From the NCBI GenBank assembly GCA_026004395.1, contig BPJB01000001.1, positions 584,910 to 648,909 on the forward strand: a stretch of DNA of 64,000 nt, given 5' to 3'. A program made the translations under genes and the position numbers. Positions 8,803 through 16,860 of the stretch are shown here, piece by piece. Position 1 is the first letter of the stretch; each line of letters begins with the position of its first letter. The stretch comes from Patescibacteria group bacterium. Its GTDB lineage: Bacteria > Patescibacteriota > Microgenomatia > Levybacterales > UBA12049. A model generated the notes under the pieces. It did not search any database. It was not told where the DNA came from and worked only from the letters and a program-made list of their open reading frames with translations.

Positions 8803-9336
8803 CTAATTATTATAAAAACTGCAATAGTTGAGTCAAGTGGGAATTTGTATCATAAGTTAATATATGATACATAAGAGTAAAAACAATACATGCACTGGAA
8901 ATATTAGTCTTCTTCTATAGATTTATAGAAAAGACAGCGGCAAAAGAGTTTGATAGTTGAAGAAATATTTCTTTAGCCTATATCTATTTATGGTCTTCAG
9001 AGAAAAATCTTATAATTGACATATAGGTCTAAACCTAATTATCTTTTAATTCTTGATAATCATCAGAAGTCTCACTTCAAGACAAGTGGCAGAAATTCTT
9101 TTTGAGAGAGCGATAAGTTTATGGAGTAAAAAATTTAAATTCTATTCCAAAAAAATGGATGAGTCGACATGACAACATTTAAACACATTTAAATATAACT
9201 TTCCAAGATTCAAAAATATTTAATTAGCAAACATTTATAAGGTTTTTTACAAAAAAATCCTCTTTAACTCTTCCTTACATTTTTATAGAAAAATGTTATA
9301 CTTCAGTTATATATACTGCATTTAATTACATACTTT

Positions 9337-9663
9337 ATGTCAATTGAACAAAATAGTAATCCTGCAAACATAAGAAGAAAAAACGAAGACATTGTCATCA
9401 GTATTGGTATTAGAGATGGAGATGGTAGAATCGTTTTTCTTTCTCATACCCAGTCCCATACTCAGATAGAAAATCCTCAGATAAACAACACAATACCATG
9501 TCCTAACACAGAGATTTTATTTAGTGAAAAAGAGCCACCATCACTTCATCTTCCCACTGTATCTCATTCTAAAGAATATACAGTCAAAGAAGATAAAGTT
9601 ATTGATATCGGTTTTCTAGATGAAGACGGTAATATAATTCGACTTTCTAATAACCAATCTTAG
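9337..9663 (+). CDS. Hypothetical 108-aa protein with two internal repeats of about 22 aa. It is the first gene of the 9.3-15.4 kb hypothetical cassette.
   Basis: DIVISIGIRDGDGRIVFLSHTQS is repeated as VIDIGFLDEDGNIIRLSNNQS. The gene is preceded by about 530 bp of AT-rich non-coding DNA. Confidence 0.35.
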   Translation: MSIEQNSNPANIRRKNEDIVISIGIRDGDGRIVFLSHTQSHTQIENPQINNTIPCPNTEILFSEKEPPSLHLPTVSHSKEYTVKEDKVIDIGFLDEDGNIIRLSNNQS

Positions 9664-9756
9664 AAAGACAAGAAGAGCTATTAATAAACCCCATTGACCT
9701 GCCAATACTCTTACTAAAAAACTAAAATCTCAAAACTATATCACTTAAACTTTCTC

Positions 9757-12258
9757 TTGTCATGTATTGCTCTAATACAATTAAAATTTGACTTAGGTAA
9801 GAAAAAAAATTATAATCCCCAATTAAAATTTATGGAAAAACAACGCTCCTCAAGATTAGCTGAAATTCAGCAAAAATATAACACTATATCTAACCTTATT
9901 GATAAACGACGCAGAATGCTTGCTGAATCTTCCTCTTGGAACATCACCCGCGATGATCCTGACGTAGAAGCTGCCGCAAAAGTTCACGCCAGAAGACTTG
10001 TTGAGCAGATAATTCCTGATAGTATTAATACACTTGAACAAAGAAGATTGGATTTACGTGCTCAGAGAGAAGTTTATATTCAAGATCATGCATCAGAATT
10101 AATCTCTAAAGCTGAGGAGTTTGAGAATGATATCGCACGGGAAGAAAAAATAATTAATCAACTTAAAAAAGACTTGCGAAGAGGATATACTACACAAGAT
10201 GTTGTAGATGATAGACTAGCAAATCTTCAAGCATTAAAATCACGTATAAAAACAGATATCGATCTTCAAGTTGGTTTTGAACTTCTAAATCAAAAACGTC
10301 AGTCTGCATTAGAGGAAGAAGCTGTTGAAAAAACTACTCCTGAAGCAACACCAGTAGCAGAGAAGCAAATCCCAATCCAAGAATCCAAAATATATACCCT
10401 TTTACCACCTTTATTACAAAATTTAAGACCAATTACATCTCATGTAGAAAAGATACATCCAAAACCAACGGATTTAATAAAGCATCAGTTGAGAATAATT
10501 AAAGAATCAGAAGAAGAGCCTACTGATACACAAATGCAATTACTTGAAGATATAGCTTTTATTAATAACCTATCAACCGATAATAATTATCAAAGAGTTT
10601 TGACACCCGAAGAACTTCATCATATCGTATGTGATATACGTAAAAATATTATATCTTCACCAAATGGTAGAATAAGAGAAATTTCACTAGATTTTCAACG
10701 AAGAATAATAGAATTTGCAGAACAATACAATGGCTACTCCGGAAAAGTTGACAAAAAAGACATACAGAAAGCAAAAAATGAGTTACAAGTTGATGGTCAT
10801 TCCCCATTAATAACAAGAAGAATCGATGACTTTGCTGAGACTGCATCCATGTTTTTAAGAGGTAGAATTATGAATCCTAATCCAGAACAAAATTTTCGAA
10901 TAAAGGTGGATAAAGTTGATTGGACGATAGAGCCTTTATATCAGGCTGCTTTAGATTTGGCATGTTATGATGTTTATCGAAATCGGTACATTACACCTGA
11001 GCAAAGAAATCTTGAATCCTGGCACTTCAACAGTAATTTAATCAATAATTGGCATACAGAAGTAAGAGATTTACTTAGAATATTAATGCAGGATACTAGG
11101 GTTGCTCCCTTAGTTGAAAAGTTAGAAGAAACTATTACTTCGATGAGACAGAAAATTCCATCAGAAAGAACTGATAGATATTCTTTAAATTTTTTAATAA
11201 GTCAACAGTTGAAAATTGGTCATTTGATTAATGATATCAATAACAAACTAGTTTTCTTACAGCAAAAAGAAGCAGCAAGCGCTAATTTACCAGTCGAAAA
11301 ACAAAAAATAGAAGGATTTTCAGCTGATAATATTCCAAGCATACTACCTCGATTGGTGCCTATTACTTCTATACATGAACATAAATATAATCCAGATAAT
11401 ACTGTGCGTATACAGGCTCAAAAAGCTCATGCTATTTCACCAGATAAGCGTACTCCTGAACAAAAGCAGCTGCTAGAGGATATATCAATCTTATCTCAGT
11501 TTACAAATTCAGAAAGTTATCAAGATGTATTCAATCCGGATGAACTACATAAGTTAGTTGAAAAACTACAATTACTTTCAGGAAAGAACCGTCCAGACTT
11601 TAATGGAGTTGAAGATATGATTATAGGGATACTAGAAGAAAAAGCACGAGTAACACAAAAAGGAATAATATCAGATAGTCTGGCTGGTATCATTGAACGA
11701 GCAGACAGAAACGCACCCAATAGAAAAGGAATGCAATGGGATACTTTGTGCAGCTTTGCAAGCGAAGCATCTGCATTCATTCGACAAAGAAATATGTATA
11801 GCAGTGAAATAATGAAATATTTTTTTTCACTACAAGATCCAGAACCCAGAAATTACCCCAATTTAACGCCGGTATATCAATTAGTTGCCGATGCACATGT
11901 TCTTGATGTTATTGGTCAAAGAAGCCTTCGAGCAAGAAAAGATCATGAAGAAGCATTTCTTACAAATTGCGGAATAATCAATGATTGGTATGATGAAGTA
12001 TCACCAACTTTGGATAGCTTATTAAATTATAATAATAATGAGCAAATAAAAAGGCTCGTTTATCAATTAAAAACGATGATTGAAACTATGAATATTCGTC
12101 TCAATGGTGAACAAAAATCAGGTATTAATAAATCTTACAAAATTGATACGATAGCTGCTATTAGACTTCAAAGAAAGATAGGTCACACAATAGAACAATT
12201 AAAAGCTACTTTATCTCAACCAGAACCAGTCGAAGAACTAATTATTCCTCTTCAGTAA
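9757..12258 (+). CDS. Large hypothetical protein (833 aa, or 808 aa from the alternative ATG at 9832). It has an N-terminal coiled-coil-like region followed by two homologous modules of about 300 aa each (internal duplication). No known catalytic motif was recognised.
   Basis: Charged heptad-like sequence occupies aa 30-190. Module A (about aa 200-510) and module B (about aa 520-833) align segment by segment: LLPPLLQNLRPITSHVEKIHPKP / ILPRLVPITSIHEHKYNPDN; QLLEDIAFINNLSTDNNYQRVLTPEELHHIV / QLLEDISILSQFTNSESYQDVFNPDELHKLV; ETASMFLRGRIMNPNPEQNF / EASAFIRQRNMYSSEIMKYF. Its stop lies 23 nt before the helicase start. Confidence 0.5.
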   Translation: MSCIALIQLKFDLGKKKNYNPQLKFMEKQRSSRLAEIQQKYNTISNLIDKRRRMLAESSSWNITRDDPDVEAAAKVHARRLVEQIIPDSINTLEQRRLDLRAQREVYIQDHASELISKAEEFENDIAREEKIINQLKKDLRRGYTTQDVVDDRLANLQALKSRIKTDIDLQVGFELLNQKRQSALEEEAVEKTTPEATPVAEKQIPIQESKIYTLLPPLLQNLRPITSHVEKIHPKPTDLIKHQLRIIKESEEEPTDTQMQLLEDIAFINNLSTDNNYQRVLTPEELHHIVCDIRKNIISSPNGRIREISLDFQRRIIEFAEQYNGYSGKVDKKDIQKAKNELQVDGHSPLITRRIDDFAETASMFLRGRIMNPNPEQNFRIKVDKVDWTIEPLYQAALDLACYDVYRNRYITPEQRNLESWHFNSNLINNWHTEVRDLLRILMQDTRVAPLVEKLEETITSMRQKIPSERTDRYSLNFLISQQLKIGHLINDINNKLVFLQQKEAASANLPVEKQKIEGFSADNIPSILPRLVPITSIHEHKYNPDNTVRIQAQKAHAISPDKRTPEQKQLLEDISILSQFTNSESYQDVFNPDELHKLVEKLQLLSGKNRPDFNGVEDMIIGILEEKARVTQKGIISDSLAGIIERADRNAPNRKGMQWDTLCSFASEASAFIRQRNMYSSEIMKYFFSLQDPEPRNYPNLTPVYQLVADAHVLDVIGQRSLRARKDHEEAFLTNCGIINDWYDEVSPTLDSLLNYNNNEQIKRLVYQLKTMIETMNIRLNGEQKSGINKSYKIDTIAAIRLQRKIGHTIEQLKATLSQPEPVEELIIPLQ

Positions 12259-12280
12259 TCTAAACAATTAAGATTAAATT

Positions 12281-14356
12281 ATGGGTAAAGAAAATTTACG
12301 AGGAGAAAGTACAAAACCTCAAGACTTACTTCATGAAGGTCCCAAACTAACTCATCGTTTTTATGAAAGCATCAACATCTATCTTCAAGATGCACAACGC
12401 AACGGAGTATTACGTCCTCATCAACGTGATGTTTTCGAAAGCTTTCAACGGTTTTTTCAAGAGGGCTATACAAGAGGTTTTATTGAATTACCAACTGGAA
12501 CAGGTAAGACTGTTTTATTTGTTGAATTATCTAAAGCATTATTGAACACCGATCCTAGTCTTCCTCGACCCAAAATACTAGTCGTAACACCTACAAAAGA
12601 TCTGGTTCAGCAAATAATGGGTAGAACTGGAGAAAAAGGATATGGGAAATTTGCCCCTGAGTTAAAAGTTGGATCCTTTTTCAGTGATACACCAGATAAA
12701 GAAAAAACAGAAGAAGCTCTAGATATGTATGATGTAGTAGTCACAACATATAACTCTTTCTCTATTCTTAATAAAAGAAATGAATATCGCCCAATCACAG
12801 ATACAGATAAACAACTACTCTTGCAAGAGTATCAGTCTTCCAGAATTTCAGAATATATAGACAAAGAAGAAATACATCACCTTGTAAGTAGTATTAAATA
12901 TATTCCAACAGGCAGAAATTTATTGAATAAATTTGATGTGTTTATCTTGGATGAAGCACATCATACTTTAGGTGTTAAAACCGGGAGCATAGTTAACTCT
13001 CTGCCTCCAAATAAAGTAATTCTTGGATTCACTGCAACACCTGATGCTAGCCAACAAAAAAAATTAATTCATTACCTTCCTGAAAAAATACATTCTCTTG
13101 AACTAAATGAAGCGATATGGCTGGGATTATTAGCACCTATCGTACCGATTGGAATAAAAAGTGGTATCCACATTCGAGGTTCAAACCTCTACGACGACTC
13201 AGGAGACTTTATTGATAGTAGAATCAGATATTTAGCAGAGGACCCTAAAAGAAATAGACTTATCATAGAAGCAGCTAAATCCTTAACACAACATGGTATT
13301 GGTACAGTTATTTCATGTATTGCAGGAAATGAAGCTTGGCATGCAAGATACTTAGCTGAAAAACTTGAAAGAGAAGGAGTCCGAGCTGTTGCTGTACATA
13401 GAGGTGTTCCTTCACAAGAACGTCAGGAAATATACCAACAATTTGAAAAAGGTGAAATTGATGTACTTACTTTTATTGGTGTACTAAGTGAGGGTTGGGA
13501 TAGTTACAGAGCAAAAGCTATGATTGGAGCTAGACCTACTCGATCGATAATCTTTTCAAAACAAAGAGTTGGACGTATAACTAGACCCGGCGGAATCGCT
13601 TTTGCAATTGACATTTGGGATGAGTATGAAGATAAAAATCCTGCGATTAATGTAGCAGACATATTGAACGAAGGAGATATACCATTAGGTAGTACAGTAG
13701 GAATAGCAGAAGATAGAGGAATTATCCAGCAGGTAATTGCATCTTTGACAGAAACTACACCCTTAATGACTGTATTACCAAGTAATTATAAAAACTATGA
13801 AGAATTATTATCTGATTTAGATGTACTTAATAAAGGTGTTCTTGTAAGTTATGACCGCAAACAAACTCCGGAATGGGCTATAGCGTCACGAATAACTTCA
13901 ACATATTCAGGAGTAACAGATGAAATTTTCGCAAAAATTGAAGAACTAAAGGGAATAAAGATCAGTAAAAAACTTGCGAGACAGGGTAATTCAATCAGAA
14001 CAGTATATAGTGTAAACCAAGCTAAAGACTTACTCTACAAATTACCAAAAATTGATCCTCGTAAATACTTCATAGATGAAAAAGGAGTTAAAAGAATCTC
14101 ACCTGAAGGCCTAGTAGTATTATTTGGTAAAAGATATCCTAATTTAAATCTAGAAATTGTTCAAGAGCAACTTGAAAAAATTGAAGATCAATTAGATTGG
14201 ATACCTGCTTGCTATCAATTAACAAGAGAAGGGTCACAATATAGGAATTATAAGGTAATTAAAATATACAATGCTGAACAAAAAACAATTGATCTTCTTA
14301 ATCAGGCACTATCGGAATATTTTCAACAAACTTTATTGGATAAAAGGCAAATATAG
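12281..14356 (+). CDS. Superfamily-2 DEAH-box helicase (ResIII-like N-lobe plus helicase C-lobe) with an unassigned C-terminal extension of about 250 aa.
   Basis: Motif I is LPTGTGKTV, Ia is LVVTPTKDL, II is DEAHH, III is TATP, and VI is QRVGRITRP. The C-terminal extension (aa about 445-691) carries no recognised motif. Confidence 0.8.
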   Translation: MGKENLRGESTKPQDLLHEGPKLTHRFYESINIYLQDAQRNGVLRPHQRDVFESFQRFFQEGYTRGFIELPTGTGKTVLFVELSKALLNTDPSLPRPKILVVTPTKDLVQQIMGRTGEKGYGKFAPELKVGSFFSDTPDKEKTEEALDMYDVVVTTYNSFSILNKRNEYRPITDTDKQLLLQEYQSSRISEYIDKEEIHHLVSSIKYIPTGRNLLNKFDVFILDEAHHTLGVKTGSIVNSLPPNKVILGFTATPDASQQKKLIHYLPEKIHSLELNEAIWLGLLAPIVPIGIKSGIHIRGSNLYDDSGDFIDSRIRYLAEDPKRNRLIIEAAKSLTQHGIGTVISCIAGNEAWHARYLAEKLEREGVRAVAVHRGVPSQERQEIYQQFEKGEIDVLTFIGVLSEGWDSYRAKAMIGARPTRSIIFSKQRVGRITRPGGIAFAIDIWDEYEDKNPAINVADILNEGDIPLGSTVGIAEDRGIIQQVIASLTETTPLMTVLPSNYKNYEELLSDLDVLNKGVLVSYDRKQTPEWAIASRITSTYSGVTDEIFAKIEELKGIKISKKLARQGNSIRTVYSVNQAKDLLYKLPKIDPRKYFIDEKGVKRISPEGLVVLFGKRYPNLNLEIVQEQLEKIEDQLDWIPACYQLTREGSQYRNYKVIKIYNAEQKTIDLLNQALSEYFQQTLLDKRQI

Positions 14357-14460
14357 AATTTGATAAAAGATTAGATATTAGATAGATATTAGACAATTTA
14401 ATTAAGGAAGGTCGAAAAAGTATATGACTTATACATTGCCTAGATTGAATATAATATGAT

Positions 14461-14934
14461 ATGGAACAATATAAAGAACATAAACACAGAGAAGTACAAC
14501 AAACTTATGAACAAAAGGGTATATCAGAGCTAAATCAACTGCTAAAGAACCCAACGTTGCAGGAACGATTTATCGCAGTTCAGACAGCACCTCAACAGGA
14601 ACAGTTATCAACTGTATATAAGGAAATCGACAAGACCGTAGAGCAGAGAATAAAACCACTTATAGAAGATCAGGCAGCAACTGCACTTGGATTAACTAGC
14701 ATAGAAGAAGGACGAAAATATGGCAAGAAATGGGGAGAAGCCTTACGTGCTATCTCGGAAATAGAAATAAATTTAATAAATGGTGAAAAAATGAGAATGC
14801 CATTAGATCAAGCAAGAGAATACTTTAGAAATCAACTTGAAAATGAGTTTGCAGCTCGAATATCAGAAGCACAAGAGGCTTTGTCCAATTCTGTAATAGC
14901 TAAGAAAAAAAATTTTAGCAAGTTTAGAACTTGA
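14461..14934 (+). CDS. Hypothetical protein (157 aa, predicted helical).
   Basis: It is on the same strand as the cassette, 105 nt after the helicase. No motif was recognised. Confidence 0.4.
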   Translation: MEQYKEHKHREVQQTYEQKGISELNQLLKNPTLQERFIAVQTAPQQEQLSTVYKEIDKTVEQRIKPLIEDQAATALGLTSIEEGRKYGKKWGEALRAISEIEINLINGEKMRMPLDQAREYFRNQLENEFAARISEAQEALSNSVIAKKKNFSKFRT

Positions 14935-14974
14935 GCTTAGTAATAGAAAAAACGATCCACAATTACTCGATGCA

Positions 14975-15439
14975 ATGGGAGTTTGGGGTAGATCGCCAGA
15001 TTCATCAGGAGATCTTGGAGTTAATGATCAAGGATACCACGCAGGAGTAATTCATTACTTTGAGTACAGAGCCGATGCGGAAAAGAATGGCAGATACAAA
15101 AACACTGAGGGTGAGATAAGTATTGATGGTTTTATTAAATTTTCCAATCGTCTAAGAAGTTTCATAGATAATCCCAATCCCCAAAACAACGCTGAAGTTA
15201 AAAACGCCACCATTATTGAGGACGAGCAAGGTAATAGAAGGTTATATGTCTTAACAGATAAAGGTGAATTTATTGTTGGTTTTGAGAACGCACAAAATCA
15301 GGAGCCTATGCGAGTAATTACCATTATCCCAGGAAGAAATGACAAAGATTATGCAAATGCTGTTAATACTGAACTTGAAGGAAAAAATGACAGAAATAGA
15401 CTAAACAAATTACATGGCGCAAGACGTATCATCAGTTGA
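14975..15439 (+). CDS. Hypothetical protein (154 aa, beta-rich). It is the last gene of the cassette.
   Basis: It begins 41 nt after the previous gene. No recognisable motif is present. The sequence HYFEYRADAEKNGRYKNTEGEISIDG...YVLTDKGEFIVGF suggests a compact globular domain. Confidence 0.4.
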   Translation: MGVWGRSPDSSGDLGVNDQGYHAGVIHYFEYRADAEKNGRYKNTEGEISIDGFIKFSNRLRSFIDNPNPQNNAEVKNATIIEDEQGNRRLYVLTDKGEFIVGFENAQNQEPMRVITIIPGRNDKDYANAVNTELEGKNDRNRLNKLHGARRIIS

Positions 15440-15635
15440 TATACATTATACTTCATATTTGAGCAAACACAACTCTTAAATACTATACTTGAGGATTAAC
15501 TCAAGAAAAGAGATTAATATAAAAACCAAAGCAAATGAACAAATCAATGTTAATTGTATTTTGGTTGGCTGTATATTGATTAAGGATAAAATATACCTTG
15601 CATTTCTTCAAAAAATATGTTTTGCTATAGATAGC

Positions 15636-15735
15636 ATACCGAGAGGCCGTTTTGGCCCGGCAACCGAGAGTATTACGGTGCCATTGCAGCAATGCATATG
15701 TGCCAGTGAAAACTGGAAATACTTAAGGCCTCTCG
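15636..15735 (+). promoter_or_regulatory. SAM-responsive riboswitch (SAM-I/SAM-IV-like core) in the metK leader.
   Basis: The P1 arms are gagaggcc (15641) and ggcctctc (15728). The conserved core strings GGCCCGGCAACC and GGUGCCAUUGCAGC are present, as is the P4-like hairpin ccagtGAAAactgg. The 3' P1 strand overlaps the 5' arm of the downstream terminator, so mutually exclusive folds are possible. It sits immediately upstream of metK. Confidence 0.6.
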
Positions 15736-15753: not shown

Positions 15754-16860
15754 ATGAATTCATTTACATTTACCTCAGAGTCTGTTTGTGCAGGACATCC
15801 TGACAAGATCTGCGATCAAGTCAGCGATGCTATTGTAGATGCAATTCTTCAACAAGATCCATTTGGAAGAGTCGCAGTTGAGACAGTGGCTGCCAAAAAT
15901 CGTTTGATTATCGCAGGTGAGGTATCCACCACAGCCGTTGTAAACTACGAAAAAATTGCTCGAGACTTGATTAAAAGTCTTGGCTACCTTGATCCTGAAT
16001 ATGGTTTTTCTTATCTTGTGCCGATAGATATTTATATTCATGAACAATCCGCTGAAATTGCGTGCGGAGTTAAGAAAAAGGGTGCAGGAGATCAAGGCAT
16101 GATGTTTGGATTTGCCTGTAAAGAAACAGAAAATCTTATGCCTCTTCCTATATCTTTGGCACATGCTCTAACCCAAGGTATTGATAAAGCCCGAGAGACA
16201 AAATCTATACCTTATCTTAGACCGGATGGTAAAAGCCAAGTAACTGTTGCGTACCAAAATAACAAACCAACAAGAGTAACATCTGTCGTTCTTGCTGTAC
16301 CTCACGATGAAAATGTATCTCTTGATGATGTTAAAAAAGAATTGTATGTAAAAGTAGTTTCTCCTGTGCTCCATACATATGGATATTCGATAACTGAAGA
16401 TAAATTAATTGTGAATGGCACAGGCATATGGCATAGAGGGGGACCTGCTTCAGACACAGGGCTTACAGGACGAAAGATAGTCGTTGATACCTACGGAGGA
16501 TACTCAAGAGTAGGTGGCGGAGCATTTAGCGGTAAAGATCCAACAAAGGTTGACAGATCAGGAGCTTATGCTGCACGCTTCCTTGCAAAGAATATAGTTG
16601 CTGCAGGACTTGCTGACAAAGTTGAGGTGAGACTTGCATACTTTATTGGAGGTAGGAAGCCAATTATGCAAGAGGTGGAGACATTTGGTACAGAAAAGAC
16701 ATCGCCAAGATGTATCCGTGATTTTATGCTCAATTTGCTAGATACCTCTGTAGAAGGAATTCTTGAAGGCTTAAACTTACAAAGACCCATCTACCTTCCA
16801 ACAGCTACTTATGGTCATTTCGGAAGAGATAATTTTACGTGGGAGAAGGTAATAAAATAA
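15754..16860 (+). CDS. metK: S-adenosylmethionine synthetase.
   Basis: The N-terminus contains GHPDKICDQVSDAIVDAIL, and the GAGDQG and GGGAFSGKDPTKVDRSGAY loops are present. The length is 368 aa. Confidence 0.95.
   Translation: MNSFTFTSESVCAGHPDKICDQVSDAIVDAILQQDPFGRVAVETVAAKNRLIIAGEVSTTAVVNYEKIARDLIKSLGYLDPEYGFSYLVPIDIYIHEQSAEIACGVKKKGAGDQGMMFGFACKETENLMPLPISLAHALTQGIDKARETKSIPYLRPDGKSQVTVAYQNNKPTRVTSVVLAVPHDENVSLDDVKKELYVKVVSPVLHTYGYSITEDKLIVNGTGIWHRGGPASDTGLTGRKIVVDTYGGYSRVGGGAFSGKDPTKVDRSGAYAARFLAKNIVAAGLADKVEVRLAYFIGGRKPIMQEVETFGTEKTSPRCIRDFMLNLLDTSVEGILEGLNLQRPIYLPTATYGHFGRDNFTWEKVIK

Follow-up and report, generated by a model that had tools for sequence, protein, structure and literature searches.

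The conserved functional unit at this locus is a two-gene operon, formed by an SF2 helicase and a large partner protein whose repeated module is, we are confident, a previously undescribed all-helical fold, as judged from structure prediction. We regard the anatomy and linkage of this helicase/module pair as very probably correct. What the pair does is more tentative: at a rough probability of 0.4, it may be a helicase-adaptor complex that is specific to CPR bacteria and works in DNA maintenance. The locus lies in a 64,000-nucleotide stretch from a Patescibacteria group bacterium, the whole of which we call the window.

Two genes among five open reading frames

The original prediction described a self-contained cassette of five genes, with the following layout:

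8803-9336, no strand: AT-rich non-coding stretch 5' of ORF1, 534 bp, 25.7% GC
9337-9663, + strand: ORF1, 108 aa
9757-12258, + strand: big (partner) protein from its originally proposed TTG start, 833 aa
12281-14356, + strand: SF2 DEAH helicase, 691 aa
14461-14934, + strand: ORF4, 157 aa
14975-15439, + strand: ORF5, 154 aa
14461-15439, + strand: ORF4 and ORF5 as one frameshifted gene of ~325 aa, with an A8 run at 14905-14912
15629-15732, + strand: SAM-I/IV riboswitch, the downstream boundary (Rfam RF01725; 45.5 bits, gathering score 41.1)

All five same-strand ORFs, of 108, 833, 691, 157 and 154 aa, are indeed present, and they are as closely packed as had been claimed, although the gaps measure 93, 22, 104 and 40 nt, each one below the figure given. 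The boundaries hold as well. The upstream region, described as AT-rich and about 530 bp long, has a GC content well under the 35.3% of the window; it is ~81% identical to the upstream region of locus L001 and gave nothing better than E=0.3 against Rfam. At the other end, the announced metK riboswitch sits 22 nt before metK (15754-16860).

That ORF1, the big protein, the helicase, ORF4 and ORF5 make up one self-contained functional cassette is nevertheless highly improbable, and the phyletic pattern largely refutes it. Their common strand, their tight spacing between the AT-rich region and the riboswitch and the same gene order in L001 (a 95% relative) and L002 (a 76% relative) speak for such a unit, but L001 and L002 are close enough relatives for plain synteny to account for what they share, and only two genes are conserved together beyond them. 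In fact, at loci where the big protein is at most 56% identical, ORF1, ORF4 and ORF5 are absent while the pair persists. A strong promoter-like site also lies between ORF1 and the big gene.

The flanking genes have histories of their own. ORF1, whose two ends carry a short internal repeat (…IVISIGIRDGDGRIVFLS… and …KVIDIGFLDEDGNIIRLS…), has homologues only in L001 (93%) and L002 (69%) among 181 fetched loci, matches no family in Pfam, NCBIfam, PADLOC or PHROG and shows a dN/dS of 0.58; it is a lineage-specific neighbour outside the conserved pair. ORF4 and ORF5 are, by comparison with related sequences, the halves of one gene split by a frameshift: L002 has a single 325-aa ORF in this place, with a one-base difference to the window in the A8 run, and five relatives measure 325-359 aa. 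Homologues of this gene occur in six other metagenomic loci, where neither a helicase nor a module lies within 10 kb, and it too is a neighbour rather than a member of the pair.

The big gene itself was described as starting at TTG 9757. Its large size and internal duplication stand, but the true start is probably ATG 9832, which yields 808 aa rather than 833 aa. Relatives measure 801-807 aa and every one begins with MEKQ, and a promoter-like site falls inside the supposed extension; the gene therefore likely spans 9832-12258, beginning 168 nt after ORF1. This sigma70-like site (TTGACT-17-TATAAT) agrees with 11 of 12 consensus positions, a consensus match only, in a setting where promoter-like sites overall are not above shuffle expectation. 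Translational coupling of the helicase with the big protein, also part of the original prediction, may be suggested by their 22-nt gap.

The partner module and the helicase

The partner protein and its upstream site comprise:

9788-9816, + strand: sigma70-like promoter, 16 nt before ATG 9832
9832-12258, + strand: partner protein, 808 aa from its probable true start at ATG 9832
9832-10326, + strand: N-terminal long-helix region, residues 1-165, with AF2 helices at 8-165
10390-11295, + strand: module copy 1, residues 187-488, degenerate, 24% identical to copy 2
11296-12255, + strand: module copy 2, residues 489-808, a conserved new all-alpha domain
12232-12255, + strand: acidic-hydrophobic tail EELIIPLQ, family consensus [DE]EEI[VIT]P[LF][ED]

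The internal duplication noted originally consists of two copies of an all-alpha module of ~310 aa, predicted with a pLDDT of 94. The module was duplicated in tandem in the window lineage, and the first copy has since degenerated, retaining just 14 of the 36 family-conserved positions. The N-terminal region is modelled less firmly (pLDDT by block mostly ~80-90, with two 10-residue blocks at 67, in a full-length AF2 model that is poor) and is also conserved in same-clade relatives that have one module, such as L007 (E 5.6e-45). We found no match for the partner in Pfam, NCBIfam, PADLOC or PHROG, which bears out its description as a protein of unrecognised family, and no relatives of the module in Pfam, PDB or BFVD. 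A resemblance to FAT/talin/vinculin-type four-helix bundles covers one third of the domain at 5-12% identity; being generic to up-down bundles, it is not evidence of homology. Conservation in the module is strongest at Arg, Lys, Asn, Gln and Tyr residues, and the conserved positions include no Asp/Glu/His set of the catalytic or metal-binding kind.

Most module proteins end in a short tail (EEIxP[L/F][E/D]), which falls within the last 6 residues in 48/69 members of the module family. By its sequence, this tail seems to resemble the C-terminal tip of SSB, DDDIPF, which docks onto partner proteins (PMC10164576). In RadD, for example, activation occurs when an acidic-hydrophobic tail binds a hydrophobic pocket with a basic rim (PMC10238739). 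The likeness to SSB-Ct is inexact, a point that we count against the adaptor reading: the hydrophobic residue is usually followed by at least one acidic residue and is hence not the free C-terminus.

The helicase carries all four of the motifs first reported for it (LPTGTGKTV at residue 70, DEAHH at 224, TATP at 251 and QRVGRITRP at 428), and these are conserved in 33 relatives. Its two lobes, RecA1 and RecA2, with motifs I, II, III and VI, place it in the ResIII/DEAH type of SF2, with the ATPase motifs of a helicase/translocase intact. Pfam matches above cut-offs (ResIII 1.5e-24, DEAD 2.8e-17, Helicase_C 1.1e-11) cover residues 43-437, and a database entry from a Patescibacteria group bacterium, KatS3mg089_0579, is 100% identical. 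Profile matches of the core in the PDB are SauUSI-type 7clg (2.7e-23), HsdR 3h1t, XPB, Rad25, RadD 6jde (1.6e-12) and UvsW, so that the core appears nearest to DNA motors and repair helicases. RadD is also the best NCBIfam match (9.4e-13), but the curated repair-helicase models of NCBIfam all score far under their cut-offs.

Behind the motor lies a further domain:

13631-14353, + strand: C-terminal domain of the helicase (residues 451-691), conserved throughout the CPR family but uncharacterised

The unassigned extension of about 250 aa in the original prediction is therefore real. Its 240 aa align full length in 33 family members, in none of which Pfam finds a domain there, and its profile has no relative among PDB sequences (best E 0.26). 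Non-CPR and phage homologues match the helicase over residues ~37-445 only, which suggests that the domain is private to the CPR helicase family.

Linkage and distribution of the pair

We found a module gene directly beside a helicase carrying the family C-terminal domain, on the same strand, in 15/15 distinct loci (the window and 14 others, helicase at least 41% identical), upstream or downstream of it according to clade. Another nine pairs apparently share contigs, as indicated indirectly by contigs of equal size. Pairwise identities of helicase and module correlate (r=0.96, Mantel p ~2e-4), the helicase and module trees come close to congruence, and gene order follows clade: helicase and partner are inherited and diverge together. 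They do so at different rates, with a mean identity across the family of 0.40 for the partner and 0.51 for the helicase, and a dN/dS of 0.51 (partner, against L002) and 0.20. In examined Saccharibacteria loci, a sister clade of the helicase with the same C-terminal domain but no partner is a stand-alone chromosomal gene.

Taxonomically labelled carriers are all Patescibacteria, except for one MAG labelled as a Nitrososphaeria archaeon, which is taken to be misbinned; so far, the pair is confined to these ultra-small bacteria (CPR). The distribution is sparse, with 78 clusters (50% identity) in a set of 1.8 billion representatives. Orthologues universally present at a conserved housekeeping locus would have spoken against the defence-like system first proposed, but the pair is neither universal nor fixed: it occupies a different genomic locus in every lineage, among ordinary cellular genes at the loci examined. 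In Levybacteria, for instance, the order is hrcA-grpE-dnaK-dnaJ, pair, clpB-nusA-infB. So sparse and locus-varying a pair is as compatible with an accessory or conflict gene as with a maintenance gene.

Maintenance, defence or mobile element

Could the pair instead be an undescribed two-gene anti-phage or anti-plasmid system of CPR, in which the restriction-like helicase detects foreign DNA or moves along it and the module is the effector or specificity subunit? We consider this possible but doubtful. The patchy occurrence would fit, and the core finds its best matches among restriction and defence motors, namely SauUSI-type enzymes and HsdR. Likewise, mREase_IV (6.8e-18) and PbeA (4.3e-17) of PADLOC, the dnd restriction helicase TIGR04095 and Pfam SWI2_SNF2 (PF18766) all match the helicase. 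A transposase-associated gene lies upstream of the pair in L004 and a recombinase fragment in L008. The faster-evolving partner, with its tandem duplication, degeneration and variable N-termini, would suit this reading too; conflict proteins often evolve fast, with variable N-termini and duplications, and we count these traits against a maintenance role.

The searches, however, yielded no positive evidence for the Hachiman- or Druantia-like module first envisaged. The 24 PADLOC families matched in the cassette are all generic helicase cores and leave the partner unmatched. Among 119 neighbour proteins at 8 loci, the check for a defence island returned isolated single-member PADLOC matches only, a result that rests on the first 25 of 40 families (MTase, ClpB-like DolB and RmuC among them). 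No nuclease or other recognisable effector was found; the sole nuclease-family match is sub-threshold and pairs the helicase core with an NCBIfam model for the Hef nuclease, and the partner signatures reported missing at the outset (DUF1837, HEPN, STAND, methyltransferase) are indeed without a match in Pfam and PADLOC. The Levybacteria pair is embedded in a dnaK-clpB cluster, the trees keep Levybacteria together and three Saccharibacteria together with no obvious rampant transfer, and the viral, phage and plasmid collections IMG/VR, INPHARED and PLSDB lack the module. The support for defence is no greater than that for a role in genome maintenance. The fuller claim, that the pair founds a new class of two-gene immunity against phages or mobile elements, seen only in Patescibacteria so far and built on an effector or sensor fold without known relative, is unlikely.

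Comparison with known systems separates the pair from each of them. SauUSI offers the best solved-structure match and the best PADLOC match, and in both proteins an extra C-terminal domain follows the motor, but the match spans only part of the motor (residues ~205-448), SauUSI is one polypeptide where here there is a separate obligatory partner, and the N-terminal PLD nuclease and DUF3427-type C-terminal domain of this Type IV restriction family occur in 0/33 family members. Nonetheless, it is a Type IV restriction enzyme and not RadD that gives the core its strongest structural-sequence match, a point that we count against maintenance. Type I restriction fails as well (hsdR TIGR00348 at 26.9 bits against 284.55, with no methyltransferase or specificity gene in the window neighbourhood). 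Hachiman (HamA DUF1837 with the HamB helicase) and Druantia (the DruE DUF1998 helicase) similarly set an SF2 helicase beside a large gene of unknown function and occur sporadically, but the partner here is an unrelated all-alpha fold: the four non-helicase proteins have no Pfam match above the gathering cut-off, DUF1837 included, Pfam finds no DUF1998, and the PADLOC matches include no Ham or Dru model. XPB-Bax1 and T4 UvsW-UvsW.1 share a ResIII-type motor with a dedicated, if small, operon-encoded partner; the XPB model, however, scores 26.1 bits against a 610-bit cut-off, and our partner resembles neither Bax1 nor any known family or solved structure.

It is improbable, though less so than a five-gene cassette, that the pair serves to replicate or maintain a mobile element, be it an integrated plasmid, an ICE or a prophage remnant, or that it acts on RNA. 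The helicase core matches phrog_16 'DNA helicase' at 3.8e-61 and has 24-28% identical, DNA-helicase-annotated homologues in Paenibacillus, Vibrio and other phages, but phage and plasmid homologues lack both the C-terminal domain and the module. The closest relatives all sit on short contigs (3.6-6.9 kb), and L004 and L008 have the mobile-element genes mentioned above; the long-contig examples (96-275 kb), however, are chromosomal, no primase, polymerase, integrase or structural genes were found beside the pair, and the window shows neither flanking repeats marking an element nor an anomalous GC content of the cassette. As for RNA, the RecA2 lobe also matches DEAD-box RNA helicases, but the ResIII N-lobe and the best full-core matches are DNA enzymes.

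The reading that we tentatively prefer, a helicase-adaptor complex in DNA maintenance, has a parallel in RadD, an SF2 repair helicase of E. coli that binds the C-terminal tip of SSB. Both are SF2 motors with accessory C-terminal parts, and the partner ends in a tail similar to the one that the RadD pocket binds, although this tail belongs to a dedicated partner, not to SSB, and is not at the very C-terminus. The window helicase is not RadD itself, because it scores 47.3 bits against a 720-bit NCBIfam equivalog cut-off. In favour of maintenance we count that Pfam, NCBIfam, PADLOC and PHROG searches found no effector domain in the pair proteins. We envision that helicase and partner form a stoichiometric complex, in which the partner would be a non-catalytic adaptor or regulator, acting as a dimer or, in its tandem form, as a pseudo-dimer. 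Its tail would dock into a basic-rimmed hydrophobic pocket, as the SSB tip does in RadD, RecG and RecQ, and the docked partner would recruit the ATP-driven DNA motor to particular DNA structures or gate it there. Such a complex may provide accessory genome maintenance in the streamlined genomes of CPR bacteria, for example by processing branched or stalled DNA intermediates.

Genes and boundaries of the locus

The five open reading frames of the original prediction are all present in the window and are as closely packed as it described, with gaps of 93, 22, 104 and 40 nt rather than 94, 23, 105 and 41. The big protein, read there as 833 aa from a TTG, has to be shortened. Its five database relatives (725-807 aa) begin with MEKQ, which corresponds to ATG 9832 in the window, and a sigma70-like TTGACT-17-TATAAT (11/12 match) at 9788-9816 sits within the supposed N-terminal extension, so that the gene is probably 9832-12258. 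The locus then reads as follows.

Features of the locus (window positions; all five reading frames on the same strand)
9337-9663: ORF1, 108 aa, with the same ~25-residue motif at both ends
9832-12258, same strand as the helicase: big protein (the partner), 808 aa
12281-14356: helicase
14461-15439: ORF4 and ORF5, read as one ~325-aa gene with a 1-nt frameshift in an A8 run (14905-14912)
15629-15732: SAM-I/IV riboswitch ahead of metK, 45.5 bits, just over the Rfam gathering score of 41.1

Both proposed edges were confirmed. Upstream of ORF1 lies an AT-rich region of 534 bp (25.7% GC against 35.3% in the whole window), in which an Rfam search found no RNA element better than E=0.3; downstream, the riboswitch stands directly 5' of metK, which it is predicted to control in this CPR genome. 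The GC content of the cassette itself is unremarkable. A Shine-Dalgarno sequence is not recognisable in the 25 nt 5' of the genes at 9337, 9832, 12281, 14461 and 15754 (metK), and a -10-like TATAAT or TATACT lies ~10-20 nt 5' of several of these starts, which together suggest that 5' leaders are very short or absent in this organism.

Are these genes a single five-gene cassette, as originally proposed? ORF1, whose end motifs EDIVISIGIRDGDGRIVFLSHTQS and EDKVIDIGFLDEDGNIIRLSNNQS are identical at 14/25 positions, has relatives in only two of the fetched loci, the close relatives L001 and L002 (95% and 76%). ORF4 and ORF5 appear to be one gene: the region is a single 325-aa ORF in L002, from which the window differs by one base at the A8 run, and the ORF5 frame is open and conserved 5' of its own ATG. 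The five database members of this family are likewise single proteins (325-359 aa); in intact members the motif GVIHYFEYR…EKNGR is strongly conserved and no known domain is present. An assembly error, a recent inactivation or slippage might each account for the frameshift. At six metagenomic loci with ORF4/5 homologues, neither the helicase nor the partner's module occurs within up to 10 kb, and the ordinary synteny of close relatives would explain why ORF1 and ORF4/5 accompany the pair in the window, L001 and L002. We therefore consider a functional unit of all five genes very improbable; only the helicase and its partner are conserved together.

L001 (GCA_038893955.1, JAWAQI010000058.1) is a 5.8-kb contig, 95% identical in protein to the window cassette. 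The MAG to which it was assigned bears the label 'Nitrososphaeria archaeon', and the contig was almost certainly misbinned.

Linkage of the helicase and its partner

The helicase follows immediately downstream on every contig with a relative of the big protein, and where contigs are longer, the unannotated neighbour of the helicase encodes a protein with the same C-terminal module. At locus L007 the upstream partner has a single module (503 aa; 47% identity to copy 2 of the window protein, with the N-terminal region shared), and partners found downstream of the helicase measure 370 aa in one Saccharibacteria genome and 574 aa in Levybacteria. When HMMs of both families were run over 92 fetched loci, a module gene lay directly adjacent and on the same strand at all 15 distinct loci with a helicase of ≥41% identity to that of the window; it precedes the helicase in the window's clade and follows it in the others. 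Indirect support comes from 9 further helicase/module pairs on contigs of identical size in database tables. Pairwise identities in the two families are tightly correlated (r=0.96, Mantel p ~2e-4) and the neighbour-joining trees are almost congruent, with the module diverging faster (mean identity 0.40 versus 0.51 for the helicase). Against L002, dN/dS is 0.51 for the partner and 0.20 for the helicase. By these comparisons the conserved unit is two genes, helicase and partner.

A sister helicase clade at ~33% identity has the same C-terminal domain. Near its 12 distinct fetched Saccharibacteria loci, no module was found within 10 kb by the family HMM or by 11 weak members used singly, nor is there another conserved neighbour. 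Some helicases of this clade may nevertheless have a very divergent module partner, because the longest contigs of the weak module member P0211 (446 aa) and of the ~33%-clade helicase P0069 are both 13,794 bp in length; P0201, the cluster representative of P0211, matches the module family at E 6.6e-6.

The two proteins

The SF2 assignment of the helicase was borne out, with ResIII (1.5e-24), DEAD and Helicase_C matches over residues 43-437 and the four quoted motifs at residues 70, 224, 251 and 428. A protein from a Patescibacteria group bacterium, KatS3mg089_0579, matches the helicase at 100% identity, which places the window in a CPR genome. Its C-terminal extension, residues 451-691, is as unassigned as was claimed: Pfam and PDB sequence searches with these 240 residues gave no relative. 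All PDB matches of the helicase family profile, led by the SauUSI-type 7clg (2.7e-23) and followed by a type I R subunit (3h1t), XPB, RadD and UvsW, are confined to the motor. The top NCBIfam match is RadD, which scores 47 bits where the cut-off is 720, and the best PADLOC matches, mREase_IV and PbeA, cover cores only. Including the C-terminal domain, the family comprises >100 clusters aligned over at least 85% of their length, far more than the partner family, and its taxon-named clusters are all Saccharibacteria, Levybacteria or Patescibacteria. At L041 (Patescibacteria JAQUAW010000016.1, 2781-13819), the helicase core is matched by each of four successive ORFs on one strand (217-252 bits), a tandem array of SF2 helicase paralogues.

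None of the other four products gave an above-cut-off match in Pfam, NCBIfam, PADLOC or PHROGs, as the original prediction had it. The internal duplication it saw in the big protein is real: a long-helix N-terminal region (residues 1-165; AF2 block pLDDT mostly 80-90) is followed by two copies of a ~310-aa unit, residues 187-488 and 489-808. From 1.84 billion representatives, an exhaustive profile search collected a module family of 78 clusters, most of which match the second unit alone and nearly all of which carry it at the C-terminus of ~330-820-aa proteins. Their N-terminal extensions contain no recognised domain except one sub-threshold ArsR-type HTH in Levybacteria. Copy 1 is a degenerate duplicate, as it retains only 14 of the 36 positions conserved at ≥80% in the family, against 33 in copy 2.

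The full-length model of the 808-aa protein, built from 6 sequences, was poor (pLDDT 61, pTM 0.30) and was excluded from the fold search; a single module was modelled instead. Copy 2, with a 54-sequence alignment, gives an all alpha-helical model of high confidence (pLDDT 94.3, pTM 0.87). Foldseek against PDB and BFVD returned nothing below E=0.18, the family profile found no sequence relative in PDB, and Pfam scans of the members one by one gave no match below E=4.5e-4. By the model and these searches, the module is a domain that folds with high confidence and is related to nothing known in PDB, BFVD or Pfam. N224 and Q292 are invariant, followed by R99, Y175, R209, R268 and K279, and by H29, E83, E106, R135, R143 and D181 at 85-90%; we infer from this set a binding surface rather than a metal-dependent active site.

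Genomic setting and possible function

The pair occupies a different site in each lineage. In the window it lies between a NUDIX/glycosyltransferase block and metK; at L007, among miscellaneous small enzymes; in a Saccharibacteria genome, after ftsA-ftsZ-nrdR and a recombinase fragment. In Levybacteria (L010/L011/L020, 8001-12472) it stands between hrcA-grpE-dnaK-dnaJ and clpB-nusA-infB on the same strand, with a helicase of 903 aa that carries an insertion and the 574-aa partner, whose sub-threshold HTH lies at residues 167-198. Elsewhere it adjoins folC-like, DUF1801 or unknown genes. A DUF1801 gene directly beside the helicase in two distantly related loci, L007 (10130-10486, downstream) and L174 (8520-8939, upstream), could be coincidence.

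That the pair is a new defence system, as the original prediction suggested, is a doubtful reading for which positive support is absent. Run at 1e-8 on 119 neighbour proteins from 8 loci, PADLOC gave isolated single-member matches only (40 families) and no enrichment of defence genes; the matches listed, from 25 of the 40 families, are generic (one methyltransferase, the ClpB-like DolB, RmuC, mad2, PDC-M37B). We think still less of a mobile-element or RNA-related role. No meaningful direct or inverted repeats, as would mark a mobile element, flank the cassette in the window.

A viral, phage or plasmid origin was rejected: IMG/VR, INPHARED and PLSDB lack the module, and the helicase has only remote, core-only homologues there (24-28% identity).

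We favour, at a tentative probability of about 0.4, an accessory helicase-adaptor complex in genome maintenance, and rank defence, a mobile-element or RNA role and the five-gene cassette after it in that order. Within its last six residues, the tail of 48 of 69 module proteins reads [DE]-E-E-I-[V/I/T]-P-[L/F]-[E/D] (EELIIPLQ in the window, EEITPFE in several relatives). It resembles the SSB C-terminal tip (…DDDIPF), imperfectly because one or more acidic residues usually follow the hydrophobic residue. The pocket in which SSB-interacting enzymes hold the tip is hydrophobic and has a basic lip (PMC10164576), and RadD requires this contact for stimulation of its ATPase by SSB (PMC10238739). We envision that the tail would tether the partner, either to its helicase or to some other protein that binds the SSB tip, and that the tandem modules of the window's lineage may stand in for a dimer of single-module partners.

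Our searches found no publication on this pair or on the locus of the source genome. The observations behind the original prediction largely hold; of its interpretation, the undescribed helicase-centred unit remains, without the five-gene cassette or support for defence. The pair matches no known system. Both the domain of the partner and, by sequence, the one at the C-terminus of the helicase are new. SF2 motors served by a dedicated accessory subunit are, as a general design, already familiar.

Patescibacteria (CPR) account for a large part of bacterial diversity, and about half of their genes still lack a functional assignment. Here an anonymous "hypothetical protein" becomes tractable, as a 78-cluster domain family with a confident structural model and no known relative, whose obligate helicase partner and conserved tail motif offer a testable docking mechanism. 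Both proteins are small and soluble, and in vitro tests should be easy. As a defence system, the pair would be one so far seen in CPR only and built on a new fold; as a repair factor, it would reveal how DNA intermediates are processed in minimal genomes without the common recombination helicases.
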